A stretch of DNA of 64,000 nucleotides from Patescibacteria group bacterium (GTDB taxonomy: Bacteria; Patescibacteriota; Microgenomatia; 2-02-FULL-39-11). How positions within the stretch are numbered: the first letter of the stretch is position 1; every line of letters begins with the position of its first letter. The DNA lies in NCBI GenBank assembly GCA_023379265.1, contig JAMCUI010000004.1:9273-73272 (forward strand), in the 5' to 3' direction. Shown piece by piece: positions 12,763-37,245 of the stretch. Below the pieces are notes generated by a model. It did no database searches. It was not told the DNA's origin and saw only the letters and a list, made by a program, of their open reading frames with translations. The position numbers were made by a program, and so were the translations under genes.

Positions 12763-12975
12763 AAACTTTAATATCTAAGGACACGGTGTTATCAGACCTG
12801 CCGAGTCGGAAGCAACTCCTGTGCTAACATCAATGATCATAAACTTTAATATCTAAGGACACGGTGTTATCAGACCTGCCGAGTCGGAAGCAACTCCTGT
12901 GCTAACATCAATGATCATAAACTTTAATATCTAAGGACACGGTGTTATCAGACCTGCCGAGTCGGAAGCAACTCC
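12709..12975. repeat. 78-bp tandem repeat, about 3.4 identical copies, spanning the junction of two pilin genes
   Basis: Unit starts at 12709, 12787, 12865 and 12943. Each unit carries, on the - strand, TAG, a 12-nt spacer and ATG with 20 further codons, giving the mini-ORF MIIDVSTGVASDSAGLITPCP*. Confidence 0.9.
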
Positions 12976-13527: not shown

Positions 13528-13573
13528 TTTATAAACTATTAACTAACAACCAACAACTTACAACCCAACCAAA

Positions 13574-14089: not shown

Positions 14090-14091
14090 GT

Positions 14092-14580: not shown

Positions 14581-14581
14581 A

Positions 14582-15064: not shown

Positions 15065-15107
15065 GTCGTGAAACTGGCTACCTGCTACTTTCTACATATT
15101 ACATAAA

Positions 15108-15617: not shown

Positions 15618-15665
15618 TTTTATGAAACTAACTCTTAAACACTCATTTTTGGCTGCAAAAAATAT

Positions 15666-16436: not shown

Positions 16437-17788
16437 TTTTCTCTATATTTATTTTTTTTATTTCCCGCCTCCGACGCCATCCATAAAATAATCATATCAG
16501 TAACAAAATAGGATTCGTTTATGAATGTATAGCGGAATAAAATATAAAAAACCGAATAAAAAATTGCGACGGACAATAAAACAGCCGTCAAAATTTCATC
16601 ATTTTTTTTATATCCGGCAATTGCCGCATATAAGTTTTTTACCAAGAAGACCAATACCGCTAAAACAACGATTATCGTCACGAAAAACGGAATATCCCGG
16701 TTATAAAAAACGTTGTATAAGGCGTTCAGGCTCATTGCCCTGGGATATGGTATCCACCAATTCTGCTTGTTTGAATAAAAAAATCCGCCGATAGTCTGGA
16801 TAAAGAAAATTTTCGGGTCGGCAATAAAAAATGGAGAAACCGTAACTAAAATGACGGCTACAGAAGCATAAAAAAACTTTTTCACTTTCTTAAAGAGAGG
16901 GAATAAAAAAGGGTAAAGCACAACATAAACAGGTTTTATTCCAACCAACAACCCGAATATTAAACCGCCAAAAATCGTCTTATCAATCCTCCTGGAGCTA
17001 AACTTTTGCGAAAGAATATAAAAAGTAAGAACCAAAAAGAAGAATTCCATTTCCACGAGCCATGACTGCTCGACAATAAAAAGGGAATTTGGCCTGAATA
17101 GATAAATTAACGACAATGATTCAGAAACAATACTTCTTCCACCAATAAGATAAATCAGCAAGGCACTGCCTATTTCTAAAATGGCAAAAAGCAATCTGGG
17201 ATCGCCAAAAAGGGCAACAAACGGAATCTGAAGGAGAAATGACACCGGCCAGTAAGCAAAATAATTGCTGGGTACTCCGGCATACACTTGGGAGTAATGC
17301 GTATTGTAAGGATTTAGGCCTGAAAGTACTTTCATCGGGGCTTCCTTTAATATAGTAAACACATCTATAGTAGGAGATGGAGATGCTATAATTATCAAAA
17401 TCCTAAAAGCCAACGCGGCCAAAAGCAGGAAAACATACCGTAATCTCCTGTCTTTTGCCTGAAAATTATATTGAGGAACAATATAGGACAAAATGACAGG
17501 GAATATGAAAAGGGGCAAAAACTGAAGAATGGCCGATGAAATAAAATCCGTCTGATAAATTCCGCCCGAAAAAAACATAAATAATGAATATGAGACAACA
17601 AGAGAATAAAGCGCTAACGTTTCAGAATTTGATACATCCTTATTGATTTTATTTCTGTAAAAATAGACTATAAAAAGGAGAAATAAAACTGAGACGGCAA
17701 TTAAAATTCCGGCAAAACTCAAGAAACCTCTGTTAAAAGTAGTGACTATTATGGATAAAAAGACAATAATAAAGCTTAGGTTTGCCAT
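16433..17788 (-). CDS. polytopic membrane protein, possible GT-C-type glycosyltransferase
   Basis: About 12 predicted TM helices. No soluble-domain motif recognised. Start codon overlaps pilD (ATGA). Confidence 0.45.
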   Translation of the reverse strand: MANLSFIIVFLSIIVTTFNRGFLSFAGILIAVSVLFLLFIVYFYRNKINKDVSNSETLALYSLVVSYSLFMFFSGGIYQTDFISSAILQFLPLFIFPVILSYIVPQYNFQAKDRRLRYVFLLLAALAFRILIIIASPSPTIDVFTILKEAPMKVLSGLNPYNTHYSQVYAGVPSNYFAYWPVSFLLQIPFVALFGDPRLLFAILEIGSALLIYLIGGRSIVSESLSLIYLFRPNSLFIVEQSWLVEMEFFFLVLTFYILSQKFSSRRIDKTIFGGLIFGLLVGIKPVYVVLYPFLFPLFKKVKKFFYASVAVILVTVSPFFIADPKIFFIQTIGGFFYSNKQNWWIPYPRAMSLNALYNVFYNRDIPFFVTIIVVLAVLVFLVKNLYAAIAGYKKNDEILTAVLLSVAIFYSVFYILFRYTFINESYFVTDMIILWMASEAGNKKNKYREK

Positions 17789-20066
17789 AGGATTAGTTTA
17801 TCACAATATCCTTCTTCTACTCATCCCTGCGTTATTGATTTCATTTTTTTTCTTCAGGCTTTTCTTTCCCAATCCCTCACTCTTTATGATCCCGGATTTT
17901 GGCGAGAGCGACGTGTTACATCTTAACCTGCCACTAAAATTTATCCTTTCTCAATCGTTAAGAAGCAAAAACTGGCCTTTATGGACTCCTTATCTTGGTG
18001 GTGGATTTCCAATCCTTGCGGAAGGACAAATAGGGACCTTCTATCTGCCGAATCTGATCTCTTTCCGGTTTCTCCCGTTTATTACAGCATACAATCTAAA
18101 TCTTCTCTTTGCGTACGTTCTAATCTTTGCCGGTTCATTTTTATTCTTCAGGATTTTAAATTTATCAAAAACCGCCTCAATTGCCGCCGCTACAGTTTTT
18201 ACCTTTTCAGGATATTTATCAGTCCACCTCAACCATTTTGATCTCATCCAGGCAGCCTCACTGCTCCCCCTTATCTATTGGTCCGTAGTAAGGCTTTGGA
18301 AGAAAAAACACAACCTGCAATCAATAATTCTGACTTCATTCCTGCTTTCCCAACAGATATTTACGGGTCATTTTTATATTGTATTTATCACCCTTATTGG
18401 GGCAGCAATGATATTTCTCATGTTATATATATTTGATAGAAAAAATACGTCTATATCTCATTTCCTCTATAAATCGGGACTATTCTTATCGGCACTTCTT
18501 TTAACCTTTTTACTCTCAGCAATCCAGCTTTTCCCGACAATTGAACTCTGGAAACAATCAACAAGAAAAGCCGGCCTGGATTATAATACGGTGACGGCTT
18601 ATCCCTTTTCTTTCAAAGAGTTTGTCACCTTTCTCAAACCATATTTTTTTGGCAGCCCCGCAAACGGCACTTATCCTCAGTTTAGCAACGATTGGGGTGT
18701 TTTTTGGGAAAATACGGGATATATAGGAATAATTCCTCTTACCATGGCCCTTGCCTGCCTGCTGTTTTTCAGGGATAAAAGGGTAAGAATCGCCGCTGTA
18801 ATGTTATTTTTTTCCCTACTTCTTGTTTTGGGAAAAAATTCCCCATTATATTTCGTTTTTTCCTTTCCACCTTTTTCTTTTTTCCGCGTGCCTTCAAAAT
18901 TTCTCCTCTTAACTGATTTTTCGCTCGCTTTTCTGGTAGCAATTTTGCTGCATAAGACTTTAGAAAGCATAAGAGGTGTATATAAAAAATCTGCTTTATA
19001 TAAAACCAAGCTTATAACTGTACTTTTCCTACTTTGCTTACTGGCAGGGGGAATAGTAGGGGACGAGTATCACTTCTCATATTCATACCCGCCGACAACA
19101 CCAGCCAATTGGTGGACAACCCCCCCGGAAACCGCAAAACTATTACAGGCTCAACCAAAGGGCGGAGTCACTGATATCGGATCCAGAATCGCCTGGAATG
19201 AAATTTTTCTCACACATGGATGGGATGATATAAAACTTTTCTCCTACCTGAGAAATTATATTTATCCAAACTATAACTCACTATTTTCCCTAAAGGGATT
19301 TGATGTAAACACAGGAGGTCTAGTACCCATAAGGCAGAAACTGTTTATTTCCGCAGGCCAGCAATGGGATACCAAAAATAATATCGCTACAGTTAGCGCT
19401 GTGGCTAAAAATATCTTATCGCTTGCTGGAATACGCTATGTCTTGTCTCCTTATCGGCTGGACGGGATAAAAACTGAAATTGTCGATACGGTCAGATTTC
19501 CCGCAAAAAAAATCAGGCCTATCAGTATCTACAAAAATATATCAGCCTTGCCAAATGCTTATATGTCTTATAAAACCAAATTCATCTCCACTCTTGACGA
19601 GTTCTTCAACGCTTTGGAAAATCATAAGATTTTAACAGACAGGACTGTTCTAATAGAAAATAAACATTTAGCGGTAAATAATAACCCTGAAACCTTAAAT
19701 AATGTCAAGCTTATAAAATCACACGATAATCAAAATATTTGGAAAGTTTATACTGAAAACAAAGGTATTTTTGTCATTTCAGACACTTATTATCCGGGCT
19801 GGTCTGCAAATGTGGACGGAAAAAGCGTTCAAATAGCACCAGTAAACCTGACCCAACGGGGAATACCTTTGGAAATGGGAGAGCACACCGTAATTTTAAG
19901 ATATGAACCATTATCGTTTGCGCTGGGCAAATATACCACTTACGCGACAATGGTCATAATTGTTTCAGTTCTACTTGTTTCCCTCTCGATTTCTCATCAT
20001 AAAGTTTACGGTAAAACTCAGCCTTACCCTTATCCTGGAAACAAACGGCATAATTTATCGACATAA
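17742..20066 (+). CDS. YfhO-like large membrane protein (putative GT-C glycosyltransferase)
   Basis: 774 aa. N-terminal polytopic domain and C-terminal extracytoplasmic domain, the YfhO-family architecture. Assignment is by architecture only. Confidence 0.5.
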   Translation: MTIMDKKTIIKLRFAIGLVYHNILLLLIPALLISFFFFRLFFPNPSLFMIPDFGESDVLHLNLPLKFILSQSLRSKNWPLWTPYLGGGFPILAEGQIGTFYLPNLISFRFLPFITAYNLNLLFAYVLIFAGSFLFFRILNLSKTASIAAATVFTFSGYLSVHLNHFDLIQAASLLPLIYWSVVRLWKKKHNLQSIILTSFLLSQQIFTGHFYIVFITLIGAAMIFLMLYIFDRKNTSISHFLYKSGLFLSALLLTFLLSAIQLFPTIELWKQSTRKAGLDYNTVTAYPFSFKEFVTFLKPYFFGSPANGTYPQFSNDWGVFWENTGYIGIIPLTMALACLLFFRDKRVRIAAVMLFFSLLLVLGKNSPLYFVFSFPPFSFFRVPSKFLLLTDFSLAFLVAILLHKTLESIRGVYKKSALYKTKLITVLFLLCLLAGGIVGDEYHFSYSYPPTTPANWWTTPPETAKLLQAQPKGGVTDIGSRIAWNEIFLTHGWDDIKLFSYLRNYIYPNYNSLFSLKGFDVNTGGLVPIRQKLFISAGQQWDTKNNIATVSAVAKNILSLAGIRYVLSPYRLDGIKTEIVDTVRFPAKKIRPISIYKNISALPNAYMSYKTKFISTLDEFFNALENHKILTDRTVLIENKHLAVNNNPETLNNVKLIKSHDNQNIWKVYTENKGIFVISDTYYPGWSANVDGKSVQIAPVNLTQRGIPLEMGEHTVILRYEPLSFALGKYTTYATMVIIVSVLLVSLSISHHKVYGKTQPYPYPGNKRHNLST

Positions 20067-21963
20067 GAAAGTAAACTGTCGGGCTATCGGGAGAAATCTT
20101 TTCTGCCGCCTCAATCTGTTTTTTTGCGTCCTGACATCGCTTCTTCTCTATATATACCTGTGTCAGAATGGTATAACTGTCGCTGTCTCCTGGATTTAGA
20201 CTTTCGGCCCGCAAGAGATTCTTTTCCGCATCACCTGAATATCCGTTTTTAGCCTCCCAGAAGCCTGTTTCCTGACGCGCGGTAGAATAAATTGACAGGT
20301 TATCTGACAAAAGGAGGTTCTGGAAATGGGAAAGGCTGCCGGATAGTGGATCATGATAAATACTCCATAGTTTTTCGTTTTCTTTATGGATAAATTCTTT
20401 TTGGGGAACATCACCTTTTTCATAATATCTGAAAACTAAACCCCAGGGTATCCAAACTCCCTCCGTATTACCAAAAGCAAGTTTGCTGAAAACGGGAAAC
20501 TTACCATAGTTGTCCTTTACAAACGACTTAAACAGGAATACTGTGTCATCCGAATTTTGAGGTAAAGTCAAATCAGGATAACTCCTTTTCAGTTGGTCAA
20601 AATAGTAAGGAGTGCCGAATTTCCCCAGATGTATAAGTTTTACATCCGGCCGTATTTTCTGAGTGTAGTAGACATACTGTGTGTTGAAAAGGGGTGTGTC
20701 CGTGGAAATGACAAAAACACTGTTTTTGGGCAGGCTGGACAAAATATCATAAGCCAGGTTTTCTGCAGTAAAATCATCCCTGAGAATAGTGATTTTGGGA
20801 TAATTTATAAGAAAAATACCTACCGGATAAATAATAAACATAAGAACAAAAAGGCTTAAAACCGTATTACTCTTGGCTGAGGAAAACAAACGGGCAAGGA
20901 GCACCTTCATAAACAAATAAAGCTGTAACAGACCAAAGACGGTAAAAAAAGATAAAAGTATATAAAGCGGCTGGACAAAACGCTCAAAAGTACCAACCAG
21001 AAAATTCCCCACAAGTGGAAAAGAGGCATAAAAAATAAAAAAGAGATAAGAAACGGTCGAAAAAAGTAGCATAAAGAATACATCTCTTTTTTTCCTGAAT
21101 AAATAGAAAGATCCGGCAAGAATTAAAATTATCCCAAGAACACGGAAATCGTTAAAGACGAAATTAAATGCCGCCCAGACGTCTAAAGCCCGAAGCGCCG
21201 GTTCCATCATCACAAACGACCCGACCTTAAATGTCCCGTAGCCGGCGCGACTCACAAGCGCAACTACGTTTGAAGGCGTTACCTGACCTTGCCAGTTTAG
21301 AGGTGAATAAGATAATGAAGGAAGCAGAATATATATGTATGGCAAAAGGCCCGCGATAAAAAGAAATATAGATTTTATCAGTAAAGTCTTTCGAAATAGT
21401 CTTTTGTTTTTCCAAAAGAGCCATAAAAGGCCTGGTAAAACGAAAATAATTATCTGGTGGTGGGTAAAAGACAATCCAAGGAAGAATGAGAAGAGATAGA
21501 TATATTTGCTCCTTTTTTCTTTTGTAAACCGCAGAGCCGCCCAAAAAAGCAATATTATAAATAAATTGTTCAGCGCAAACACTTCCACTACTTCGCTATA
21601 GAGCCATACCGGATAAAGAAAGGCATAAGAAAAAACGCTTAAAAGGGGAATAAAAACTGATCCTCCCGTCAGAATATAAAAAATATCAAAAAGAAAAAGC
21701 AGGGAAATAAGCGAAGGAATACTGGATAAAAACCCCACTTTCCAAGCGGCAGTACCTCCCGTAACAAACTTTAGAATTAAAATTCCAAGAGAAGTATAAA
21801 GAGGATAACCCGGCGGATGGGGAATACCTGCTGTCACAATGGCGGAGACCAGATCACCTGCATCTCCGCCATAGATTGTCTTTAATTGATAATATAAGTA
21901 TAGGCTACCGCATATAAAAAATATACTCAGTAGCCCGAGAAAATATCTTTTTTCTTTTACCAC
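19954..21963 (-). CDS. DUF2723 (TMEM260-like) membrane glycosyltransferase-like protein with C-terminal TPR repeats
   Basis: N-terminal GGDAGDLVSAIVTAGIPHPPGYPLYT matches the DUF2723 signature. Many TM helices. The C-terminus carries TPR-like repeats. Confidence 0.6.
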   Translation of the reverse strand: MVKEKRYFLGLLSIFFICGSLYLYYQLKTIYGGDAGDLVSAIVTAGIPHPPGYPLYTSLGILILKFVTGGTAAWKVGFLSSIPSLISLLFLFDIFYILTGGSVFIPLLSVFSYAFLYPVWLYSEVVEVFALNNLFIILLFWAALRFTKEKRSKYIYLFSFFLGLSFTHHQIIIFVLPGLLWLFWKNKRLFRKTLLIKSIFLFIAGLLPYIYILLPSLSYSPLNWQGQVTPSNVVALVSRAGYGTFKVGSFVMMEPALRALDVWAAFNFVFNDFRVLGIILILAGSFYLFRKKRDVFFMLLFSTVSYLFFIFYASFPLVGNFLVGTFERFVQPLYILLSFFTVFGLLQLYLFMKVLLARLFSSAKSNTVLSLFVLMFIIYPVGIFLINYPKITILRDDFTAENLAYDILSSLPKNSVFVISTDTPLFNTQYVYYTQKIRPDVKLIHLGKFGTPYYFDQLKRSYPDLTLPQNSDDTVFLFKSFVKDNYGKFPVFSKLAFGNTEGVWIPWGLVFRYYEKGDVPQKEFIHKENEKLWSIYHDPLSGSLSHFQNLLLSDNLSIYSTARQETGFWEAKNGYSGDAEKNLLRAESLNPGDSDSYTILTQVYIEKKRCQDAKKQIEAAEKISPDSPTVYFLMSINYAVCFQDKGKAEFYRKLYDEKSRGKQVELKQL

Positions 21964-22016
21964 TTCTTCAACCTATTTCCGTCCCCTGTAACACGCAGGT
22001 TACAGGGGAAAAGTAC

Positions 22017-22571
22017 TTATTTAATACACCAGTAACAGGCAGTACCCGTCGAAGTTACGGAGAGACAATTTGCTCCCGTTGATCCATCACTATTATATTT
22101 TGCGTTCGCATCATTCCCGAAAGATTTCGACTGAGGAAGGAAACATACGGTCACATTTTGTGTAACTCCGTTTACATCAGCTGTAGACGTCATGTATATT
22201 TTGCCCAAATTGCCCGATCCGGCCAACTGGATAAACTCGGGTTTCAATTCTCCTGCACTTATTATCTGGTTCAGGTAGCCGTTTGGAGCACTAGTCATAT
22301 TCGTATTGGACAGTTGCATAGCATTGACATCAGTCGTCCACGGCCAGACATTCTTGACTGAATAATACCTGATAGCGGAATTATAAACCTCCTCAGCTGT
22401 ATTTCTGGTAGAAGTATCGGTTCCTTTCTTTAACTGCTCAAATGGGTCAACTGTCGCCAGAAGACCTACGGCTAAAGCTCCCAAAAGAGCTATAACGATA
22501 AGAAGCTCAATAAGCGTAAAACCTTTACTTAGAGATGAACGGACAGTTTTAATTTTCAATTCAATTTTCAC
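22017..22571 (-). CDS. type IV pilin, candidate major pilin
   Basis: …SLSKG|FTLIELLIVIALLGALAVGLLA. Located directly downstream of pilB-pilT-pilC. Confidence 0.8.
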   Translation of the reverse strand: MKIELKIKTVRSSLSKGFTLIELLIVIALLGALAVGLLATVDPFEQLKKGTDTSTRNTAEEVYNSAIRYYSVKNVWPWTTDVNAMQLSNTNMTSAPNGYLNQIISAGELKPEFIQLAGSGNLGKIYMTSTADVNGVTQNVTVCFLPQSKSFGNDANAKYNSDGSTGANCLSVTSTGTACYWCIK

Positions 22572-22621
22572 CCCCTCCAGAAAAATAAAGGATTTTTATC
22601 CGAATCAATAATATCTTTTAA

Positions 22622-23824
22622 CTAAAACTTGCTGGTCAACGAATATATTGGCAATAGCACTGCCATCACTAAAAACCCCACTCCAAGGCCCAATACAACC
22701 ATGATAAGTGGTTCCATAAGGGTTGTCAAGGAACGTATGCCGTTCTCCGCTTCTGTCTGAAAATATATGGATAATTTATACAGGGCGTCACCCAATTTTC
22801 CAGTCTGTTCACCTACAGTCACCATTTGCGGCAATATTGGAGGGAAAAGGCTGGGATCTGATAACGGCTCTGAGAGAGGTAAACCTTTTTCTACCTTTTT
22901 GGCAGCCAGTGAAAAAGCCTCCTGATATAATACGTTACCCGTGGCGTCCTGCGAAATTTTAAGAGCAAGAAGGATGGGGACACCTCCTTCAACAAGCATC
23001 GACAGAGTTCTGGTCACCTCAACTAAAGTGGATTCCCTCACCAAATTTCCAAATACCGGAATCTTAAGAGAAATTGTAGCTAAAATATGTTTACCCAACC
23101 AGGTTTGTTTCCATTTCAAAAATGCGGTAACAAATACTACGATACCGATAATAAGAAAATACCAGCTGTGTAACATCAGGTTTGATATAAAAATGAGAAT
23201 CTGTGTAGGCAGAGGCAAATCCACGCCAAATTCCATATACATTGAAGACAATCTTGGTATCACAACAGTCATCACTATTACTGTAACTATACCCATACCG
23301 GTTATGACTACAGCAGGATACATCAGTGTTCCTCTGACTTTGCTCTGGAAATCTCTTGACTTCTCCAGATTATCCGCCAGTCTAGTCAATATCACATCAA
23401 GCTTACCTGAGGCTTCTCCTGCTTTTACTAATGCAATATAAATCGGTGGGAAAACTTTAGGATATTTTTCCAATACATCCGCAAAAGCCTTTCCACCCTG
23501 CACCTCATCTTCAATTTGGCTGACAAGCTTGAGGGATGAAGGATTATTCATCTGCTGTTGCAATATATTTAAGGCTTCAACCAGCGTCAGTCCGGCCGTA
23601 ATCATTGTCGCCAGCTGTCTAGTAATATGGACCAGATCGCTAAAACTTATCTTACTCCCTGAAGCGGAAAGATTTAAGATCGGTTTTGAGGTCTCCTTCA
23701 AAGAAACGACAAAAAAACCTCTTTCGTGCAAGAGTGAAAGAGCCTGTTGGTTAGTAACCGCTTCAACCACGCCTTTTTGAGTCTTGCCTTCGGCATCCTT
23801 CACCTGATAAGAAAAACGTGACAT
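22622..23824 (-). CDS. pilC: type IV pilus assembly platform protein (GspF/PilC family)
   Basis: Two T2SSF-type repeats with 3-4 TM helices and the conserved MVTVGEQTGKL motif. Confidence 0.85.
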   Translation of the reverse strand: MSRFSYQVKDAEGKTQKGVVEAVTNQQALSLLHERGFFVVSLKETSKPILNLSASGSKISFSDLVHITRQLATMITAGLTLVEALNILQQQMNNPSSLKLVSQIEDEVQGGKAFADVLEKYPKVFPPIYIALVKAGEASGKLDVILTRLADNLEKSRDFQSKVRGTLMYPAVVITGMGIVTVIVMTVVIPRLSSMYMEFGVDLPLPTQILIFISNLMLHSWYFLIIGIVVFVTAFLKWKQTWLGKHILATISLKIPVFGNLVRESTLVEVTRTLSMLVEGGVPILLALKISQDATGNVLYQEAFSLAAKKVEKGLPLSEPLSDPSLFPPILPQMVTVGEQTGKLGDALYKLSIYFQTEAENGIRSLTTLMEPLIMVVLGLGVGFLVMAVLLPIYSLTSKF

Positions 23825-23840
23825 AATTAGTGTTTGATCA

Positions 23841-24908
23841 TCAGTGTTCCATCAATTGTAAATACCTATCAGGCCGCAAAGCGTATTCCAATGCGACATC
23901 ATGGGAAATAATATTCTGCTCTACCATTTGCCTCAAATTTTCCTCAAAAAGCATCATTCCTGTTTCGGCGGATGTCTGAATAATATTGTCAATCAGATGA
24001 GTTTTCCCCTCCCGGATGGTATTTTTTACACCGGCTGTACCCAAGAGTATTTCACACACAGGTACCCTTCCCCCGGAAGTGCTCGGTACCAACCTCTGTG
24101 AAACAACGCCTGACAACACCATGGAAAGCTGCAATCTCACTTGGGACTGCACGCCGGGCGGAAAACTATCAATAATCCTGTCAATCGTCTGGGAAGTGGA
24201 ATTGGTATGCAATGTCGAGAAGACAAGATGACCAGTTTCAGCAATAGTCAGTGCAGAAGAGATAGTATCATAATCCCTCATCTCACCAACATAGACTATG
24301 TCCGGATCTTCACGAAGTACATTTTTCAGTGCCCCAGCCCATGAATGCGTATCCTGATACATTTCCCGTTGGGATATGATTGATTTTCCCTTTGCGTAAA
24401 CATACTCAATTGGATCCTCAATTGTCACGATATGGCACATCCTACTGACATTTATTTCAGCAATAATAGAGGCGAGAGTAGTAGACTTACCTTGGCCTGA
24501 TGCGCCAGTAAGAAGTATAAATCCTTGGCGCATTTTGACAAATTCATGCAGAATCTGCGGCAGATGAAGTTCTTCTACGGTGGCGACTCTTGAGGGAATA
24601 AGCCTGAACTCTGCAGCAAGGGAATCGCGCTGGTAATAGGCATTTCCGCGAAAACGGTACTCCCTTTTATCATCGGTTTCAAAAACTGAGGAAAAATCAA
24701 GTTCCCTATTTGCAATTAAAAGTTCCTTCTGGGCAGGATTGAGAAGGCTGTAGACCATCTGCTCAATATCCGCAGATGATATCTGGGGGAAAGTAATAAG
24801 AGCATGCAACTCGCCATGAATCCTCAGAGTAGGCACATGGTTTACCACAAGATGCAAATCTGAAGCATTTCTGGAAATCGTAACTGCAAATAATTCCCTT
24901 ATATCCAT
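23841..24908 (-). CDS. pilT: twitching-motility retraction ATPase PilT
   Basis: 355 aa. Walker A GASGQGKSTT and the PilT-type His box. Confidence 0.85.
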   Translation of the reverse strand: MDIRELFAVTISRNASDLHLVVNHVPTLRIHGELHALITFPQISSADIEQMVYSLLNPAQKELLIANRELDFSSVFETDDKREYRFRGNAYYQRDSLAAEFRLIPSRVATVEELHLPQILHEFVKMRQGFILLTGASGQGKSTTLASIIAEINVSRMCHIVTIEDPIEYVYAKGKSIISQREMYQDTHSWAGALKNVLREDPDIVYVGEMRDYDTISSALTIAETGHLVFSTLHTNSTSQTIDRIIDSFPPGVQSQVRLQLSMVLSGVVSQRLVPSTSGGRVPVCEILLGTAGVKNTIREGKTHLIDNIIQTSAETGMMLFEENLRQMVEQNIISHDVALEYALRPDRYLQLMEH

Positions 24909-24916
24909 AATAATCT

Positions 24917-26614
24917 TTATTCCTCCGCCACTCTTATAACCTCTTCTATAGTAGTAGTCCCATCCAAAACCTTGAGATATCCATCCTGTTTTAATGTAAT
25001 CATGCTTTCCTCCCGCGCCTGATTTTCAATCGCTTCTGCAGTTGCCCTCTCCATAATAAGCTTGGCTATCGAAGGAGAAACGATAATTACTTCGAAAATC
25101 CCTACTCTTCCTAAATAACCTGTATTATTACACTCCTTACAACCCTTCCCCCTGTATAAAACAATATCCTGTTTGTCTGGTGGATAAAGCTTGCCCAAAA
25201 CATTTTTGATATCAGCTACAACTTGAGGAGTAGGCTTATAAGTTTCCTTGCATGCTGTACAAATTTTCCTAGTAATTCTTTGGGCTTCAACAGCATTAAG
25301 GACTGACACCACCAGAAACGGTTCGGCACCCAAATCCAAAAGTCTTGGTATGGCTGTGGCCGCATTATTGGTATGCAGTGTAGAAAAGACCAAATGGCCT
25401 GTCAGAGCTGCCTGAACAGCCAGGTTCATTGTCTCATTATCCCTTATCTCACCAACAAGAATGATATTTGGGTCCTGACGAAGAAAAGAACGGAGTCCTG
25501 AAGCAAAAGTGAGACCGGCTGTGGGATTTATCTGAACCTGGCTTAGTCCCACAATTTCATACTCCACCGGATCTTCCAGGGTGACTATATTTACTTTCTC
25601 TGTATTCAGCTTTGACAGAACCGAATATAAGGTAGTGGTTTTCCCAGAACCGGTAGGCCCGGTTACAAGTATTATACCATGGGGCCTGGTGATGGCATTG
25701 TTTAGATAATTAAGCGATATGCCGTGTAACCCCAATTCGGGCAGATCCGGAATACCGCCAGTTTTCTTCAGAAGCCTCATCACAATCTTCTCTCCGTGTA
25801 CAGTAGGCAGTGAGGAAACACGAAGGTCGATCTCATCACTTCCCAGTTTGAAATTAAAACGCCCATCCTGGGGAACCCTCCTTTCATCAATCTTCATTGC
25901 AGACAGTATTTTTATTCTTGAGACAACAGCTTCATGCACTGACCTTGGAAGAGCTAATTTTTCGTGAAGTATACCATCGATACGATAGCGAACGCGGGTA
26001 CGCGTTTCCTGCGGTTCTATATGGACGTCTGAAGCCCTGCTGCGCACAGCATACTCAAGAATGGTAGACACTATTTTGGCAATAGGGGCTTCCTTTATAA
26101 TCTGACCTAACTGTTTTGCGTCAATAGTCTTTACCGTTGCAGTCTCTTTGAGAGCTTCGGAAACTTCAGTAGAAAGGCCGGCTGAGTAAACTTCTTCTAT
26201 CTTCTGAGTAATCTCGCTTTCTTTGGCCAGGTAAGATACTATTGATTTTCCGGATTTTTGCTCCAGAAATTCAATAAGAGGCAAATCAAGAGGATCCACC
26301 ATCGCAATTTTTAATTTGTTGGCTTTTTTATCAAGATCAAAAGGAACCAGTCTGTATTTCCGCGCCACAGGCTCAGGGATAAAAGTCAGAATCTCAGGAG
26401 ATATGCCTCTACCTGATAGGGAAACAAACGGCACGTGATCAATTTTTGCTTTCGCCTCTAAAACTGCATCCTCACTTACCAAATTTTTGGAAAGAAGTAT
26501 TTCAATAGTGCTTTTTCCGGAGTTAAGAGCGCTCAATTTCACCTCATCGGCAATCGTTTGGGAAATTAAACCCTCTTCAACAAGTATCGCTAATAGTTGC
26601 TGGCTGTTATCCAT
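24917..26614 (-). CDS. pilB: type IV pilus extension ATPase PilB (GspE family)
   Basis: 565 aa. N-terminal GSPII_E_N-like domain, Walker A GPTGSGKTTT and a tetra-Cys motif CTACKE...CKEC. Confidence 0.85.
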   Translation of the reverse strand: MDNSQQLLAILVEEGLISQTIADEVKLSALNSGKSTIEILLSKNLVSEDAVLEAKAKIDHVPFVSLSGRGISPEILTFIPEPVARKYRLVPFDLDKKANKLKIAMVDPLDLPLIEFLEQKSGKSIVSYLAKESEITQKIEEVYSAGLSTEVSEALKETATVKTIDAKQLGQIIKEAPIAKIVSTILEYAVRSRASDVHIEPQETRTRVRYRIDGILHEKLALPRSVHEAVVSRIKILSAMKIDERRVPQDGRFNFKLGSDEIDLRVSSLPTVHGEKIVMRLLKKTGGIPDLPELGLHGISLNYLNNAITRPHGIILVTGPTGSGKTTTLYSVLSKLNTEKVNIVTLEDPVEYEIVGLSQVQINPTAGLTFASGLRSFLRQDPNIILVGEIRDNETMNLAVQAALTGHLVFSTLHTNNAATAIPRLLDLGAEPFLVVSVLNAVEAQRITRKICTACKETYKPTPQVVADIKNVLGKLYPPDKQDIVLYRGKGCKECNNTGYLGRVGIFEVIIVSPSIAKLIMERATAEAIENQAREESMITLKQDGYLKVLDGTTTIEEVIRVAEE

Positions 26615-27525: not shown

Positions 27526-29700
<2,175 letters not shown>

Positions 29701-29765
29701 TGTTATATTAGATATAGCAGAAATAATAAATATATTATAAACAGCCTGATCAATTAGGAGGATAT

Positions 29766-31799
29766 ATGAACAATTACATATTAATGGCGGCGGGAGGAGG
29801 ACTTTTAGCGGTATTATATGGCCTTTTTCTTTCCGCCAGAATTTTCAGACTTCCTTCGGGCACTAAAGATATGCAGGATATATCAGACGCCATAGCCGAA
29901 GGTGCCTCAGCATTCCTCAATAGGCAATATAAAACAGTAGCAGCAATAGCCTTGGTAATATTTGCTATATTATTTTATACACTTGGCCTTCTGTCTGCAG
30001 TTTCTTTTGCTGTTGGAGCCGCCTTTTCAGCCATGGCAGGCTTTATCGGCATGAACGTGTCAGTCCGGGCAAATGTAAAAACAGCCCAGGCGGCCAAAAA
30101 CGGTCTAAGTGACGCACTTGAAGTTGCTTTCAAAGGAGGTTCAGTAACAGGACTAATGGTTGCCGGTCTGGCACTTCTTGCTTTAAGTATAATTTTTTAT
30201 ATAGTCGTAGGAGGAAACCCCTCGGCAGTAAACTTACAACCGGTTGTAACTCTCAGTTTCGGAGCGTCGCTTATCTCTGTCTTTGCCCGTCTGGGTGGAG
30301 GTATTTATACAAAAGGAGCGGATGTCGGGACGGATATGGTCGGTAAAATTGAAAAAGGCATCCCGGAGGACGACCCAAGAAACCCAGGCGTGATTGCTGA
30401 CTTGGTAGGGGACAACGTTGGCGATGATGCCGGAATGGCCGCTGATCTTTTTGAGACTTATGTAGTGACCGCAACCGCTGCCATGCTTTTGGCACAGCTT
30501 ACTATGCCGGGCTTCACAAATGCCCTTGTTTTTCCATTAATTGTCGGCGCGGCGGCCATAGTCACCTCAATTATAGGCACGTTTTTCGTAAAACTGGGCA
30601 AGAACGGGAAAATTATGCCGGCACTTTATAAAGGACTTATAACGACAGCAGTACTTTCGGCCATAGTCTTTTATTTTGTCACAAAGGCAATCATGACAGG
30701 AAACGGCATGTACACAAGCCTTAACCTCTATCTTGCCAGCCTCATTGGAATAATAGTGACTATTGGCATGGTGGCAATAACCGAGTATTACACATCAAAA
30801 AATTATTCACCCGTAAAGGAAATTGCTCAAGCTGCAAATACAGGACACGGGACAAACATAATTGCGGGTCTTGCCATATCGATGAAATCCACACTTTTGC
30901 CAATATTATTGATATCAGCCGCCACACTTTCCGCCTACTATCTTGCAAATCTTTTTGGGATTGCTATTGCTGCAGTTGCCATGTTATCTCTTACCGGAAT
31001 TGTTGTCGCAATTGACGCCTTTGGTCCAATCACAGATAACGCAGGAGGAATAGCAGAGATGACAAACCAGCCGGAAAAAGTCAGGGAAGTAACGGACGCT
31101 CTGGATGCTGTCGGCAATACAACTAAAGCAGTAACCAAAGCCTACGCCATAGCATCGGCCGGTCTTGCAGCTTTAGTCCTTTTTGCCAGCTATACCCAGG
31201 AATTGTCAAAATCCGTAGTCTTAAACACGCTGCAGCTGACAGCCAGTTTTTCTCTCTCTGATCCAAAAGTGCTTGTCGGTCTGCTCATAGGCGCAGCCTT
31301 ACCTTATTTTTTTGGCGCCCTCGCTATGGAAGCGGTCGGGAAAGCTGCTGAAGCGGTAGTAATAGAAGTGAGGCGGCAGTTTAAGGAAATCAAAGGAATA
31401 ATGCAAGGTAAAGCCAAACCCCAATATGGGGTAGCTGTAGATATAGTCACGAAATCAGCATTAAAAGAGATGATATTACCAGCCTGTCTTCCTGTAGCTA
31501 CTCCCATAATAGTAGGATTTATCCTGGGTCCTTATGCATTGGGAGGATTCCTTGTAGGAACAATTGTTACGGGTCTTTTTGTAGCAATCTCCATGACGAC
31601 CGGCGGGGCTGCCTGGGATAACGCCAAGAAATATATCGAAGAAGGCCATTTTGGCGGGAAAGGCAGTCCGGCTCACCAGGCTGCGGTCACCGGCGATACG
31701 GTAGGAGACCCTTATAAAGATACCGCCGGTCCCGCTATAAACCCGATGATAAAGGTAGCAAACATTGTTGCGTTACTGATAGCAGGCTTTATTCATTAA
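29766..31799 (+). CDS. hppA: membrane-bound H+-translocating (V-type) pyrophosphatase
   Basis: [17 protein letters not shown] and [17 protein letters not shown] motifs, about 16 TM helices. Preceded by a Shine-Dalgarno sequence (AGGAGG). Confidence 0.95.
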
Positions 31800-31877
31800 A
31801 AGTCAGGACCTGCCATTAATCCTATGATTAAAGTGGCAAATATTGTGGCTCTCCTTATCGCAGGATTTATACATTAA
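31800..31877 (+). repeat. in-frame duplicate of the hppA 3' end (KS + [23 protein letters not shown]), diverged only at synonymous sites
   Basis: 23 codons give identical amino acids, with 16 third-position or synonymous nucleotide differences relative to the hppA end. Confidence 0.85.
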
Positions 31878-32025
31878 GGTTTACGCGCAAGAATGTCTTC
31901 CGAAATGGCCGGTTGAAGAGATTTCCAATCATTAAAAGTAGATGGTAACTTTAATGAAAAATAAGTGAAATTTGTAAAAAGACTGCCGGAAACAGTAAAT
32001 CTTATAAAACAATTGTTAAATTATT

Positions 32026-34596
32026 ATGAATGACATAGGCAAATTACAGCACTCGGAGATAACTGCAGAGATGAAGCGCAGCTACCTGGACTATGCCATG
32101 AGCGTCATAGTCTCGCGTGCTCTACCAGACGTGCGTGACGGCTTAAAACCGGTACACAGGCGCATACTTTATGCCATGCATCAGATGGGACTCCATTTCT
32201 CCGGTAAAAATACCAAATCCGCCAAGGTAGTCGGAGAAGTGTTGGGAAAATACCATCCTCACGGGGATATGCCGGTATACGACGCTTTAGTACGTCTGGC
32301 ACAGGAATTTTCCATGCGCTATCCCCTCATCAAGGGTCAGGGTAATTTTGGCTCAGTGGATGGAGATCCACCGGCAGCTATGCGTTATACGGAAGTAAAA
32401 CTAGCCAAAATTGCCGAGGAAATGCTTCTTGATATTGAAAAAGAGACGGTAAAATTTTCCGATAATTTTGACGGAACTCTTAAGGAACCGGACTGGTTGC
32501 CGGCCAAACTGCCAAATCTTCTCCTTATGGGTTCAGACGGAATAGCGGTAGGCATGGCTACCAAAATACCTCCCCATAATCTCTCAGAGATTGTTGATGC
32601 CATAGTTTATGCCCTTGGGAAAAGCAAGTTTGTAAAAAAAGAGGAAGAAACATCCGACATCACGCAACTGGCCTCAAACAACCAGTCCTCACCGGTCAAG
32701 AAAAAAAGCGAGGAAAAACAACCAGCAGTACAAACAGTTCTGAAAACCGATGTAACTTTGGACGAGTTAATGCAGTTTGTAAACGGACCGGACTTCCCTA
32801 CAGGTGCCGCAATCTATGACATGGAAGAGATAAAAAATGCTTATGCCACCGGACGGGGCAAAATCATCATGCGTGCCAAAGCCGAAATTGAAGAAATAGG
32901 CAATGGCAAATCAGCCATAATCGTAACTGAAATACCTTATCAGGTAAACAAAGCCATGCTTATAGCCAAAATTGCCCAACTGGTCAAAGACAAAAAAATT
33001 GAGGGCATATCGGACCTCCGGGATGAATCAGACAGACATGGTATAAGGGTAGTAGTGGAACTCAAACGCGATGCCGTACCCAAAAAAGTCCTCAATAATC
33101 TTTTCAAACACACTGAAATGCAATCAAGCTTCCCTGTAAATATGGTAGCCCTCGTTGAGGGCACACCCCAAACCCTAACCCTTAAAATGATCGTTGAGGA
33201 ATACATAAAACACCGCCACCAGGTCATAAAACGCCGCAGCGAGTTTGAACTCCGGGAGGCCAAAGCCCGCGAACATATTCTGGAAGGCCTAAAAATTGCC
33301 GTAGACCATATCGATGAAGTAATAGAGATCATAAAACGAGCAAAAGATGTAGAGGACGCAAAGATAAAACTCATGTCCAAATTTTCGCTCAGCGACATCC
33401 AGTCACAAGCGATTTTGGATATGCAACTGAAGCGCCTGGCTGCCCTTGAAAGGCAGAAAATTGAGGATGAACTGGCAATGATAAGGGAAACAATAGCTTA
33501 TCTTACAGACCTTCTTTCCCACCCAGAAAAAATTCTGGTAGTGATAAAGGACGAACTCCTGAAACTGAAAGAAAAATATGGCGATGAGAGACAAACCAGA
33601 GTTTACAAATCAAAAGTCGGCGAATTCTCAGACGAGCAGCTTATACCAAATGAAGAGACTGTCATCGTCATTACAAAGACTGGTTATGTCAAAAGACAGT
33701 CACCCTCATCATTTAAGCTTCAGGCAAGAGGCGGAAAAGGTGTAATAGGAATTACAACCAAAGAGGAAGACAGCATACAGCATTTGCTTTCCGCTTTTAC
33801 ACACGACAATATCCTTTTCTTTACCAATAAAGGCAAAGTCTACCAGCTGCGGGTCTGGGATCTGCCTGAGGGCACAAGGATAAGCAAAGGCCAGGCCATA
33901 GTAAACCTCATCAATATCGACCAAAACGAGCTTGTAACGTCTGTCCTTTCCTACGCGCTAAAGGGAGAAGAAAGCAAAAAATATTCATACATCACCATGG
34001 CCACAAAAAAAGGAACAGTAAAGAAATCAAAACTCAAAGAATATGAAAACATAAGACGAAGCGGACTTATAGCTATCAAACTTGAGTCAGGTGACGAATT
34101 GACATGGGCCAAACTATCTACAGGAGAGGACAGCGTGCTTATGGTCTCGCACGAGGGTAAATCCATCAAATTTTCAGAAAAAGAAGTACGCCCCACCGGA
34201 CGTGACACAATGGGTGTAAGAGGAATACTTATAGGAAGTGAAGATTATGTCATAGGCATGGAGATAATTGGTCCAGACAGCAAGTCACTTGATTTCCTTA
34301 CAATAATGGAAAAAGGTATAGGCAAAAAGACACCCACGTCTGGATTTCCCATGCAACACAGGGGTGGACAGGGAGTCAAAGTAGCCCAGGTTACACCCAA
34401 AACAGGAAAAGTGGCCTGCGCGCAGCTTATACCCGCCGACTGTCAAAATCTGGTTTTGACTTCCCACAAGGGACAAGTAGTCAAACTTCCAATCATTTCC
34501 GTACCAAAACTGTCCCGTGCTACTCAAGGGGTCATCCTGATGCGATTTTCCACAGATAAAAATGACTCAATAGCGGGTGCTACCTGTCTTGCATAA
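32026..34596 (+). CDS. gyrA: DNA gyrase subunit A
   Basis: [16 protein letters not shown] and [19 protein letters not shown] motifs, with C-terminal beta-pinwheel repeats. Confidence 0.95.
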
Positions 34597-34631
34597 AAAG
34601 CTGGAAGTAAATAAATTCTCGGACATTTTCA

Positions 34632-35471
34632 ATGAAAATTGACGGCAGAAAAATCGCCTACGGAATAAAAAATAGCCTGAAGAAGCAGGTAAACATCATC
34701 CTTTCTCAAAATATTTCTCCTCATCTTGCGGTAATTATTGTCGGGAAGGATAAAAGTTCGCTTGCCTACGTCAGGCAAAAACAAATAACCGGCGCCGATA
34801 TTGGAGTAAAAGTATCTGTAATATCCTTTCCTGATAATCTGGCGCAAAATAAGCTTTTTTCAGAAATTGACCGATTGAACCAAGATCGGTCAGTCCATGG
34901 CATCATAATCCAAAGGCCTCTACCAATAACCGTAGACAATATAAAACTTGATAAGGCCGTAACTCCACAAAAAGATGTTGATGGCTTTCACAAAAATTCC
35001 TTATTCCGCCCGCCAATAGCCCTAGCCATAATGCATATATTACATAATATATTTAGCACTATAAAAAATGATAAAAATGAAAGTTTTTCCGGCTGGCTTT
35101 CAAAAAAGAAAATACTGGTCATCGGTAGGGGAGAGACTGGTGGTAAACCTATAGCAAATTATTTGATGAAAAATAATTTATCTATAACTATAGCTCATAG
35201 TAAAACAACCGACTTAAAAAGGGCGTGTCTTACCTCGGAAATTATCGTAAGCTGTGTAGGGAAGTCAAACATTGTGCGACATGATATGATAACAAATAAA
35301 ACAATCCTGATTGGAGTCGGACTGCACCCTGAGGATAACAAACTACGGTCTGATTATGATGAAGCTGAAATCGCCCAAAGAGCCGCTTTTTACACACCAG
35401 TTCCAGGAGGTGTAGGACCTGTTAATGTAGCATGTCTCTTTGAAAATCTAGTTAAAGCGTGTAAGATATAG
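34632..35471 (+). CDS. folD: bifunctional methylenetetrahydrofolate dehydrogenase / cyclohydrolase
   Basis: AYVRQKQ ... VIGRGETGGKPIANYL ... TPVPGGVGPVNVACLFENL. Confidence 0.9.
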   Translation: MKIDGRKIAYGIKNSLKKQVNIILSQNISPHLAVIIVGKDKSSLAYVRQKQITGADIGVKVSVISFPDNLAQNKLFSEIDRLNQDRSVHGIIIQRPLPITVDNIKLDKAVTPQKDVDGFHKNSLFRPPIALAIMHILHNIFSTIKNDKNESFSGWLSKKKILVIGRGETGGKPIANYLMKNNLSITIAHSKTTDLKRACLTSEIIVSCVGKSNIVRHDMITNKTILIGVGLHPEDNKLRSDYDEAEIAQRAAFYTPVPGGVGPVNVACLFENLVKACKI

Positions 35472-35628
35472 AAGATTTTACAGATCTACCGGACCTGTTA
35501 ATGTAGCATGTCTCTTTGAAAATCTAGTTAAAGCGTGTAAGATATAGAAGATTTTACAGATCTACCGGACCTGTTAATGTAGCATGTCTCTTTGAAAATC
35601 TAGTTAAAGCGTGTAAGATATAGAAGAT
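35415..35628. repeat. 76-bp tandem repeat x2.8 whose first copy is the 3' end of folD
   Basis: Unit starts at 35415, 35491 and 35567. The last copy is truncated. Confidence 0.9.
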
Positions 35629-36284
35629 TAATACCTCTTATCAATAAACTCCATTTTCCCGTTATCAATCTTTAAGTACTGACCATAACCCCAGCGAATA
35701 AAACCTGTATTTATATATCTCTCCCTTAAATTAAACTCAGCCAGATGACTGTGTCCGCATACCAAAACAGTATTTTCCGGAAGATTGCTATTTAACCATT
35801 TTCTCATCCGGTTATTCTGACTTTTATAATAACTAAGTAGCGGCTTGCCCAAAATGGCCAAAGGTATCTTTTCCCGCAAAAACTGGTAAGCAGCCGTCAG
35901 TATCCGGCCATGAGGCAACCACAAATACCTGTCGTCAGCAGCTGGAGCTATACGGCAACCGTGCTCTATATGCAGGATTTTACCTCCGGCTTTCATTTTA
36001 TATATGTTCCGCTGGCTGACCGAAAAAAGATTCAAACTTTTATCAGACAGGCTTTTCCGGTCATGGTTACCAAAAAGATAAATAGTTTCCCGGGATTTTA
36101 ACAAAGGGAATAATTTTTTCCAGCCGCTTTCGAGAAAATCATCAAGGCTAACAATATACCCATCCCAGAAATCGCCATTTATTATCACTCTATCGGCAGG
36201 AGTGATAAGTCTGGTAAGGAAATCAAATTTAGTCTTTTCAAACTTTTTTGTCAGATGAGTATCTGAAAACACTACGGAAATCAT
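35628..36284 (-). CDS. calcineurin-like metallophosphoesterase
   Basis: VFSDTHL, INGDFWD, GNHD and CGHSH motifs. I chose the internal Met (MISVVFSDTHL) to avoid overlap with the xer gene. Confidence 0.7.
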   Translation of the reverse strand: MISVVFSDTHLTKKFEKTKFDFLTRLITPADRVIINGDFWDGYIVSLDDFLESGWKKLFPLLKSRETIYLFGNHDRKSLSDKSLNLFSVSQRNIYKMKAGGKILHIEHGCRIAPAADDRYLWLPHGRILTAAYQFLREKIPLAILGKPLLSYYKSQNNRMRKWLNSNLPENTVLVCGHSHLAEFNLRERYINTGFIRWGYGQYLKIDNGKMEFIDKRY

Positions 36285-36300: not shown

Positions 36301-37245
36301 TTACTTGCGGTGAAATTTTTGATGAACCTGGCGCAGCTGCGGGTTAGTGACGTGTGTATATATCTGGGTTGTCGAAATATTTTTGTGCCCAAGCATCTCC
36401 TGGATCGAGCGCAAATCAGCTCCGGCTGACAATAAATCTGTGGCAAATGAATGTCTCAGCCCGTGCGGTGTAATCTTTACAGGCAACCTGGCTTTTTTGA
36501 CATATTTCTCCACAATCCTTTGGACTGAACGTACATTCAGTCTTGCCGCCTCATTTTCCCGTCCCGGTGAAGCTTTCCTGCCCGCATAACGAATAAATAA
36601 TGGCGAAAACGTATCCTCCCTTTCCTTCAAGTAGCGCTCAAGCCACAGGACTGCTGAATCTGACAGAAAGACTACCCTAGGCCGTCCGCCCTTTCCTATC
36701 ACACCAAACTCTTTTCTTTCAAGATTTATGGAGTCGCGGTTGAGCCGCGTCAGTTCGCTCACGCGAAGTCCGGTGCTAAAAAGCACCTCTAATATGGCTT
36801 TATCCCTCATGCCCTGGGGCGTAGAGATATTGGGCATATTCAAAAGCCTTTCAACCATCTCCCGATCAAGAAACTTCAGCGATCTGCTCTCCGCCTTTCC
36901 CAACTCTACTTTTTCAGGATTCAGAGTGGGCTTATCCTGCCTTATAAGAAACCTCAAGAAAGCCCTAAGTGCAATCAGATGATAATTTTGCGTAATGTGT
37001 TTGAGAGTCAGACCGTGGTCATCTGAATATCTGGATAAAAATAACCTGTAATCCCTTACCGTTTCTGCCTTTATTGAGTCTGTATCTGATATAGTAGGGG
37101 ATTGCAAGGCTCCAAATTGCAAAAACCTGTTTAGATAATGCCTGTAGTTCCTGATCGTTAACCTCGAACAATTCCGTTCAAGTTCCAAATAGATCAGAAA
37201 CTGATCAATCGCTTCAGATAGCTTCATTCTTACATTTTGCGACAT
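36301..37245 (-). CDS. tyrosine site-specific recombinase, XerC/XerD family
   Basis: C-terminal HGLRHSFATDLLSAGADLRSIQEMLGHKNISTTQIYTHV carries the R-H-R-Y catalytic signature. Confidence 0.85.
   Translation of the reverse strand: MSQNVRMKLSEAIDQFLIYLELERNCSRLTIRNYRHYLNRFLQFGALQSPTISDTDSIKAETVRDYRLFLSRYSDDHGLTLKHITQNYHLIALRAFLRFLIRQDKPTLNPEKVELGKAESRSLKFLDREMVERLLNMPNISTPQGMRDKAILEVLFSTGLRVSELTRLNRDSINLERKEFGVIGKGGRPRVVFLSDSAVLWLERYLKEREDTFSPLFIRYAGRKASPGRENEAARLNVRSVQRIVEKYVKKARLPVKITPHGLRHSFATDLLSAGADLRSIQEMLGHKNISTTQIYTHVTNPQLRQVHQKFHRK

Follow-up and report, generated by a model that had tools for sequence, protein, structure and literature searches.

Homology-facilitated illegitimate recombination (HFIR) during natural transformation or conjugation has been described for Streptococcus pneumoniae, Acinetobacter baylyi and Pseudomonas stutzeri. 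Integrative elements give rise to duplications of gene 3' ends at attL and attR, and the atp6 gene of Allomyces macrogynus is reportedly a hybrid made by an endonuclease-carrying insert. HFIR has been reported in Escherichia coli (PMC3240628), C-terminal displacement is known from polymorphic toxin loci (Rhs, CdiA and type VI secretion system effectors; PMC5361080), and Borg extrachromosomal elements carry perfect tandem repeats (PMC9879509). Here we analyse a 64,000-nucleotide (nt) stretch of a Patescibacteria group bacterium (assembly GCA_023379265.1, contig JAMCUI010000004.1, positions 9,273 to 73,272; hereafter the window), in which the 3' end of hppA, the gene for a membrane-integral H+/Na+-translocating pyrophosphatase, is followed by a second copy that encodes the same residues with largely different codons. 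The second copy is most likely a non-functional, untranslated scar of recombination. Our preferred but tentative reading, to which we give somewhat less than an even chance, is that it was left by recent illegitimate or homology-facilitated recombination with a diverged hppA allele.

Results

A second in-frame copy of the hppA gene end

In the list of open reading frames (ORFs), hppA occupies positions 29766-31799 between gyrB (27577-29577) and gyrA (32026-34596), all three on the forward strand. Its product of 677 amino acids belongs to the H_PPase family, as it matches the full length of the Pfam profile PF03030 (E=1e-263; residues 13-672, profile positions 1-645 of 645) and has its C-terminus at the position usual for the family. 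The last 23 codons and the TAA stop codon, which are translated (copy 1, 31728-31799, identified by direct reading), are followed by a 6-nt linker, AAGTCA (31800-31805), and by an untranslated repeat of the 23 codons and TAA (copy 2, 31806-31877). The linker puts copy 2 in frame and gives a repeat unit of 78 nt; all three elements lie on the forward strand. The peptide encoded by copy 2 equals that of copy 1 in all 23 residues and is followed by TAA. Similarity between the copies ends exactly at their boundaries, with KDTA upstream of copy 1, a stop codon followed by KS upstream of copy 2, and no similarity past the stop. The remainder of the hppA-gyrA spacer comprises 148 nt on the forward strand (31878-32025), of which the first 51 nt have 47% GC. 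This in-frame arrangement had been noted in an initial annotation of the window, and it is confirmed by direct reading and by an independent assembly.

The tandem tails exist in reads and predate the split of two strains. Contig L001 from Logan, a scaffold-free k-mer assembly of the raw run SRR10278331, is identical to window positions 29397-35444 with 0 mismatches, so that copy 2 is present at the read level; two further Logan contigs also match the window perfectly. A metagenome-assembled genome (MAG), GCA_023487465.1 (contig JAMDBJ010000009.1), represents a sister strain with 18 background single-nucleotide polymorphisms (SNPs) in 15,470 nt (0.12%). Its linker and copy 2 are identical to those of the window, and its copy 1 has CTA at codon 16, which leaves 17 differences from copy 2, all at third positions. 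We give almost no probability to an assembly or scaffolding artefact that fused the hppA ends of two co-occurring populations. Two strains do exist, and repeat arrays elsewhere in the genome vary in copy number between assemblies, but the junction is base-for-base the same in L001, it is also present in the sister-strain MAG with SNPs on both sides, and no k-mer common to both copies is long enough to provide a graph path.

Divergence confined to silent sites

Copies 1 and 2 differ by 18 nucleotides in 17 codons. Seventeen of the differences affect third positions, the remaining one is a first-position change between the Leu codons TTA and CTC, and none is nonsynonymous. The initial annotation had counted 16 differences, which proved too few, while its statement that all are synonymous stood on recount. 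Among single-base changes in copy 1, 24.5% are silent, which gives P ~1e-11 for 18 silent changes out of 18, and P ~3e-6 for 9 out of 9 when only half of the changes are assumed to fall in the untranslated copy. The substitutions are of mixed type (T>A, C>T, G>T, A>G and others) and not adenine-specific.

The silent sites between the hppA tails are saturated: five of the 22 non-Met codons are identical, compared with 7.7 in random synonymous draws under the codon usage of the genome. As a calibration, orthologues at 94% protein identity keep 67% codon identity, and those at 74-80% protein identity keep 30-45%. For a codon identity of 45% the observed 5/22 would have P=0.03, and for 55% P=0.002. 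Judged by codon identity, the two tails are at least as diverged as the latter orthologues, and as far apart as genes from different genera. Codon usage gives no sign of which copy is native.

Copy 2 contains no replacement change and no indel, and its TAA is intact. With all differences silent and the frame and stop preserved, drift after local slippage is excluded (P ~1e-11), and the earlier conclusion that copy 2 is not a fresh slippage product is borne out by the 18 silent differences out of 18. A replication-slippage tandem repeat was rejected as well, the copies being neither identical nor neutrally diverging across codon positions. The view that the second copy evolved under protein-level selection is likewise supported, by saturated, codon-position-specific divergence with frame and stop intact. 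Since copy 2 has not decayed, it was a translated gene end until recently and has been untranslated only briefly, for less than roughly 5% neutral divergence. A tail copy of the neighbouring gyrB gene, described below, has decayed; its differences from the gyrB tail are distributed over first, second and third codon positions as 4:2:7, as against 1:0:17 for the hppA pair. By the substitution pattern, the juxtaposition must be young and the divergence old, the two ends having diverged long ago while both were translated and having been joined recently. The pair shows the marks of a recombination relic, with copies that diverged under coding selection before joining and an untranslated copy without decay.

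Strain variation and DNA import at hppA

Comparison of the two strains (window against L095) shows 21 SNPs over the 2034 nt of the hppA ORF, at positions 29870-31773; 20 are silent and one gives V401I. This density is 9-fold over background (18 in 15,470 nt; P ~1e-10 to 1e-13), and the excess is confined to the ORF. It indicates import of DNA by recombination at exactly hppA and shows that the locus recombines in the population. The excess is evidence for import of foreign or strain DNA that is independent of the tail pair.

A complete set of type IV pilus genes lies at 11699-26614, directly upstream of holB-gyrB-hppA-gyrA-folD-xerC, and the same neighbourhood is found in relatives. It includes several N-methyl pilins, a prepilin peptidase (PilD), a PilC-like T2SSF protein, and PilT-like and PilB-like ATPases. 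DNA uptake via type IV pili is generally assumed for bacteria of the candidate phyla radiation (CPR), and the gene content of the cluster is compatible with such uptake.

hppA in relatives and homologues

Seven relatives each have one hppA and no tail copy, with the gene order gyrB-hppA-gyrA in L082, L085, L086, L088 and L093, and hppA-gyrA in L091 and L094. The hppA-gyrA spacer measures 27-45 nt in L085, L086, L088 and L093 and 10 nt in L094; L082 and L091 are exceptions. These short spacers often carry a significant hairpin. The AAGTCA hexamer occurs just 3' of hppA in L086 and L085, where it forms the 5' arm of the post-stop hairpin, a weak match of 6 nt only. In L082, the nearest relative (hppA product P0002, 80% identity), spacers of 215 nt (3786-4000) and 222 nt (6029-6250) flank hppA. 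They hold GC-rich stem-loops (GTCCGCC...GGCGGAC; CCCGCTGAGGCGGG) unrelated to the spacers of the window. The flanks of hppA seem to be a recurrent insertion site in the clade.

The 120 closest hppA homologues, of 660-685 amino acids, all end where the first stop lies in the alignment. Within the clade there is hardly any variation in the C-terminal 19 residues, and the last four (GFIH) vary freely among orthologues. GFIH endings occur in three of the 119 other closest homologues (P0055, P0046 and P0060, the last two with one upstream substitution). A diverged donor with an identical tail is possible, to judge from the invariant C-terminus of the clade and the GFIH tails of distant homologues; there is also an ascertainment bias, as the perfect tail match is what made the hppA case stand out. 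Identities to relatives agree among gyrB, hppA and gyrA, so the bulk of hppA looks native and the exchange may be confined to its 3' end. A sliding codon-identity scan of hppA against relatives gave no mosaic breakpoint.

No second example of the arrangement was recovered. A degenerate pattern for a tandem hppA tail (MIKV...NPMIKV) matched nothing in JGI metagenome contigs or IMG/VR; it does recover the window itself, which served as the positive control. A scan of genome contigs with the hppA protein gave, among the matches listed, distant homologues only (at most 69% identity) and no close relatives; these were used as negative controls.

Possible sources of the second tail and the downstream spacer

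The initial annotation had suggested a search of other genomes or metagenomes for an hppA 3' end matching copy 2; such an end was sought and none was found in the sets named below. The 3' ends of the seven relatives match neither copy beyond chance, the best being L093 with 60/72 nt identical to copy 2. The GFIH-ending homologues P0055, P0060 and P0046 were considered as the source and rejected, as their 3' ends do not match. A 29-mer from copy 2 had 0 matches in JGI metagenome contigs and a 26-mer had 0 matches in IMG/VR, and copy 2 together with the spacer matched nothing among plasmids and phages.

The spacer at 31878-32025 has no homologue at the DNA or peptide level. The 62 nt past copy 2 were considered as the 3' end of a convergent gene, with a minus-strand frame that is open for 49 codons and ends in a shared TTAA, and this candidate was dropped for want of a protein match. 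Neither the gyrB-hppA nor the hppA-gyrA spacer contains a relic of an hppA head, a gyrA head or a third hppA tail. An 11-nt direct repeat, TCATTAAAAGT, is present at 31793-31803, where it runs from the end of copy 1 through the stop codon and 4 nt further, and again 136 nt downstream at 31929-31939, both on the forward strand. Its second copy pairs, as the 5' arm of a weak hairpin, with ACTTTAATGA (31948-31957). The reconstructed TCATTAAAAGT/ACTTTAATGA hairpin has a folding free energy of -7.8 kcal/mol (z -1.1) and is not significant.

The Rfam scan of the window returned tRNA only, promoter and terminator scans gave nothing remarkable, and RNA folds of the copy-2 region are no better than those of shuffled sequences. 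TAA is the commonest stop codon in the window (22/48 ORFs), where conserved genes have normal length. The sole Shine-Dalgarno-like motif, AGGA, is 15 nt from the internal ATG of copy 2.

Tandem repeats at gene ends throughout the genome

The genome is full of duplications of ~75 nt at gene ends, a decisive context that the initial annotation missed. The 64-kb window holds seven near-perfect tandem arrays (period at least 30 nt), whereas 786 kb of other loci (a set that includes ~85 kb from relatives) hold none, an enrichment of more than 80-fold. A scan for duplicated gene tails and heads gave nine hits in ~45 genes here and essentially none in ~1000 ORFs elsewhere. Arrays are found at 12708-12975 (78 nt x 3.4; ORF end and leader of a pilin-like gene), 35415-35629 (76 nt x 2.8; folD 3' end), 50306-50609 (73 nt x 4.2; dnaB 3' end), 51854-52077 (73 nt x 3.1; dnaB 5' end with ribosome-binding site), 58289-58464 (42 nt x 4.2; 3' end of an EamA-family gene), 58548-58730 (77 nt x 2.4; intergenic, before rpmE) and 59277-59626 (nested 36/182 nt; 5' end of a release-factor gene). 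Two further arrays lie outside the window in the sister strain (L096), at 5755-5905 (76 nt x 2.0; recR 3' end) and 6169-6372 (75 nt x 2.7; 3' end of an iron-sulfur (FeS) assembly gene). With other units of 78, 76, 73, 73, 77, 76 and 75 nt, the 78-nt hppA unit fits both their length and their position across the stop codon. The copies within arrays are 97-100% identical in nucleotides.

The folD repeat exists in reads, since contig L001 breaks off exactly 30 nt inside it, as expected of a k=31 graph. Several arrays differ between the strains. The EamA array has 4.2 copies in the window (58289-58464) and 3.0 in GCA_023487465.1 (L096 14995-15122), the release-factor array measures 350 nt (59277-59626) and 207 nt (L096 14007-14213), respectively, and the FeS-gene array (L096 6169-6372) is absent from the strain of the window and of Logan (L097 300-360). 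The differences in copy number reflect either rapid evolution or assembly uncertainty. The 21-nt filler of the FeS array, TTGAGTAATATGAATTCATTC, occurs neither in the repeat-free allele nor elsewhere in the 77 kb of genome examined; because this filler is non-local, the units of the FeS array are not simple duplications of local sequence. The unit stays tightly at 73-78 nt despite tail lengths of 54-75 nt and filler lengths of 1-21 nt. In a gene-dense genome, ~75-nt duplications may be tolerated only when they include a stop or start codon, and such a filter would explain their position at gene boundaries. No description of such repeats in Patescibacteria was found in the literature.

The gyrB gene, directly upstream of hppA, has older tail copies. 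Its true tail (29529-29577, 15 residues) is followed by a decayed, out-of-frame copy, KRFSQSHIKSAALDI and a stop (29600-29648, 73% nt identity), and by a third, partial copy, KSATLDT and a stop (29658-29683), all on the forward strand. These copies cover the last 8-16 codons, and 0/500 shuffles reach their score. Neither is in frame, and both show decay at every codon position, as expected of neutral copies. The gyrB-hppA spacer is 188 nt long, compared with 17-34 nt in relatives, and also contains three ~35-nt repeats of the ATAGCAGRA type (region 29529-29730). L082 also has a relic gyrB tail (KSANLDV and a stop), past a hairpin-rich insert of ~190 nt.

Further details concern individual arrays. 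The duplicated segments of hppA (31728, 31806) and folD (35415, 35491, 35567) all start at a Gly-Pro pair, GGWCC (GGTCC or GGACC), and hppA copy 2 and folD share GGACCTG; this may be chance through codon usage or a preferred break site. Among the copies of the dnaB arrays there are only three substitutions, all third-position C/T (GAC/GAT, AGC/AGT, CCC/CCT). They are silent in the gene frame though the variant copies lie outside the ORF, which with three sites has a chance probability of ~4%, and they may reflect strain SNPs spread over the copies by the assembler. In the release-factor gene (59277-60285), which has RF-1 and PCRF domains, the N-terminal half of PCRF seems to be missing, and the 5' end of the gene consists of in-frame 36-nt repeats (12 residues) nested in the 182-nt repeat. 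The 78-nt array in the region 12259-13542 joins an ORF tail (ending in GVASDSAGLITPCP and a stop) to a pilin-like leader peptide (MIIDVSTGVASDSAGLITRG, followed by QTLIE); its unit spans the gene junction and contains the start codon.

Discussion

A recombination scar as the proposed origin of copy 2

We hypothesize that DNA of a distantly related hppA allele entered the cell or served as a repair template. The incoming hppA DNA would have paired with the resident gene in the highly conserved upstream region, and its other end would have been joined without homology, a few bases past the stop codon, by homology-facilitated illegitimate recombination or a template switch. The event would have been neutral and hence have survived, the pump retaining the same 23 residues and stop. 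The initial annotation had proposed a relic of homologous replacement by a divergent allele. Exchange with a divergent allele is indeed the best supported account, but plain homologous replacement cannot leave a tandem relic, and one junction must therefore be illegitimate.

Two versions of the event can be envisaged. The 3' part of hppA with copy 1 and AAGTCA may be the incomer, in which case the resident tail would have been left behind as copy 2. Alternatively, a foreign fragment of 125-136 nt (31804-31939) may have been inserted just past the native stop, between the two copies of TCATTAAAAGT. This bracket, with a hairpin like the post-stop hairpins of relatives, points to 31804-31939 as a possible insert through a microhomology-mediated switch, although it is suggestive only. 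The foreign origin of one tail is inferred, as are the mechanism and the direction of the event. Single-tail alleles would mark the resident tail, either as the hppA body joined to copy 2 without copy 1, or as copy 1 followed directly by AGATGGTAAC.

Several observations weigh against a scar of recombination with a diverged allele. The exact 23-residue tail is found in 1/119 other closest homologues (P0055), and the same tail in so diverged a donor would be uncommon. A donor was sought in the seven relatives, JGI metagenome contigs, IMG/VR, plasmids and phages, and none was found; in none of its three frames does the downstream spacer share even three 5-residue words with any protein in a set of 5.8 billion sequences. 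The TCATTAAAAGT pair, which brackets copy 2 and 51 nt, is equalled in 11/500 shuffles (~2%) and is thus marginal, and microhomology at the junction can be read only with the donor sequence. In addition, the 78-nt hppA unit coincides with the 73-78-nt repeats of the genome, a match that a one-off illegitimate join does not predict.

This coincidence raises the possibility, which we consider unlikely, that copy 2 arose by the same process as the ~75-nt gene-end repeats, either with a diverged template or with the translated copy later overwritten by imported alleles. The hppA unit is within the size range of eight other arrays that straddle stop or start codons, arrays and duplicated gene ends are strongly concentrated in this genome, the arrays carry short inter-copy fillers of obscure origin much like AAGTCA, and the hppA ORF has imported variation. 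However, the other arrays are 97-100% identical, and a locally templated copy cannot be saturated at silent sites without replacement changes. Overwriting copy 1 to its last codon would need a crossover within the final ~7 nt, and decay at all codon positions, seen in the older gyrB tail copies, is not seen in the hppA pair. A more speculative form of this idea, and in our view a rather improbable one, is an undescribed repair or recombination process with a ~75-nt ruler that adds a gene-end copy and a short filler at gene boundaries from any homologous molecule. If it were true, copying of self DNA would yield the perfect, strain-variable arrays, copying of DNA from a distant relative would yield the silently recoded hppA tail, and the hppA pair would be the first direct evidence of repeat formation templated from outside the local sequence.

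The remaining explanations place the second tail in a former gene, an element or a working product. A tandem full-length hppA paralogue, suggested in the initial annotation, would account for protein-level selection on both tails and for their head-to-tail order, provided that both genes were kept to silent saturation and that a deletion then ran from 6 nt past the first stop to codon 654 of the second gene. We regard this as very unlikely. Every relative examined has just one hppA, flanked by gyrB and gyrA or immediately preceding gyrA, whereas a duplication old enough for silent saturation should predate their split; with single-hppA relatives that carry no tail copy, an ancient in-place duplication would need many losses. 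Moreover, a streamlined CPR genome is unlikely to have kept two pumps for so long, and neither spacer contains another hppA fragment. An integrative element or homing-endonuclease cassette with its own replacement tail, later deleted to 6 nt, has an equally small probability in our judgement. Such elements typically target conserved sequence and bring a diverged, protein-equivalent gene end, from which silent-only divergence would follow, but there is no identical core at the copy boundaries (the longest shared runs are 5-6 nt), and no integrase, endonuclease, reverse transcriptase or transposase between or beside the copies. Relatives share the xerC-like gene at 36301-37245, plasmid, phage and IMG/VR searches gave no match, and the near-complete later deletion is an extra, unparsimonious step. 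A transposon target duplication was ruled out on account of the substitution pattern, and because neither a shared core nor enzymes were found. That copy 2 is functional, also raised in the initial annotation, we judge highly improbable. It lies in frame with its coding sequence and stop perfectly preserved, and could on paper be expressed by readthrough of the first TAA, which would add 26 residues and an extra helix, or as a 17-residue peptide of its own. Against this, 120/120 closest homologues stop at the position of the first stop, no other tandem-tail hppA is present in the seven relatives or in metagenome or viral contigs, and the first TAA is the commonest ordinary stop in the window. 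The GFIH residues vary freely in orthologues, so that long independent selection would not have kept the copies identical; the gyrB tail copies at the same locus are out of frame, and the AGGA motif at its 15-nt distance is the only candidate ribosome-binding site for the internal ATG.

Taken alone, the hppA tail would be a neutral scar, yet it is a rare clean footprint of illegitimate joining between deeply diverged housekeeping alleles in a CPR bacterium. To our knowledge, gene exchange in the CPR has been inferred but almost never seen at base-pair resolution. The case also flags a genome with Borg-like, strain-variable tandem repeats of ~75 nt at gene ends, in which the fillers between copies do not derive from local sequence. 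Should the repeat process have made the hppA pair, it uses non-local templates, which would constrain the mechanism of such repeats. Annotators and evolutionary analyses should be aware that silent-only divergence beside a gene need not imply that the copy is translated.

Comparison with known systems

The genomic context resembles that of Borg elements, in which near-perfect repeats are likewise genome-specific, the first unit is often inside a gene end, partial repeats flank the arrays, the central sequence is of unclear origin and the copy number varies within populations. In contrast to Borgs, the repeats described here are on a CPR bacterial chromosome and their units cluster at 73-78 nt; the hppA pair, 75% identical and differing only at silent sites, is unlike any Borg repeat described.

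A near-copy of a gene 3' end close to the gene is also a feature of diversity-generating retroelements with their template and variable repeats (TR/VR). These were rejected here, as the hppA substitutions are mixed rather than adenine-specific and leave the protein unchanged. Among the first 37 of the 48 ORFs in the window, those that were annotated, no reverse transcriptase was found. Programmed readthrough is disfavoured, as the C-terminal extension is not conserved in orthologues (seven relatives, 120 homologues). The att sites of integrative elements and the atp6 case share with hppA an incoming element that supplies a diverged, protein-equivalent gene end and leaves the resident end downstream. 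An attL/attR duplication was nevertheless rejected, as there are only 6 nt between the hppA copies, no element, recombinase or endonuclease, and no shared core above 6 nt.

In polymorphic toxin loci, the acquired 3' end becomes the translated end and the old 3' end is displaced downstream as an untranslated orphan, an outcome similar to that proposed here. Toxin tails, however, differ from each other, have cognate immunity genes and undergo adaptive turnover, whereas the two hppA tails specify one and the same 23-residue end of a housekeeping ion pump, the orphan measures 72 nt, and the replacement brings no apparent advantage. The duplicated length at hppA matches the repeat unit of the genome, which HFIR does not predict, and HFIR is not known from CPR bacteria. 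In its architecture the locus nonetheless resembles HFIR, which combines a homology anchor on one side with a non-homologous join on the other and can place foreign sequence beside partly duplicated resident sequence; at hppA, the left side is seamless and the join is abrupt, 6 nt past the stop codon.

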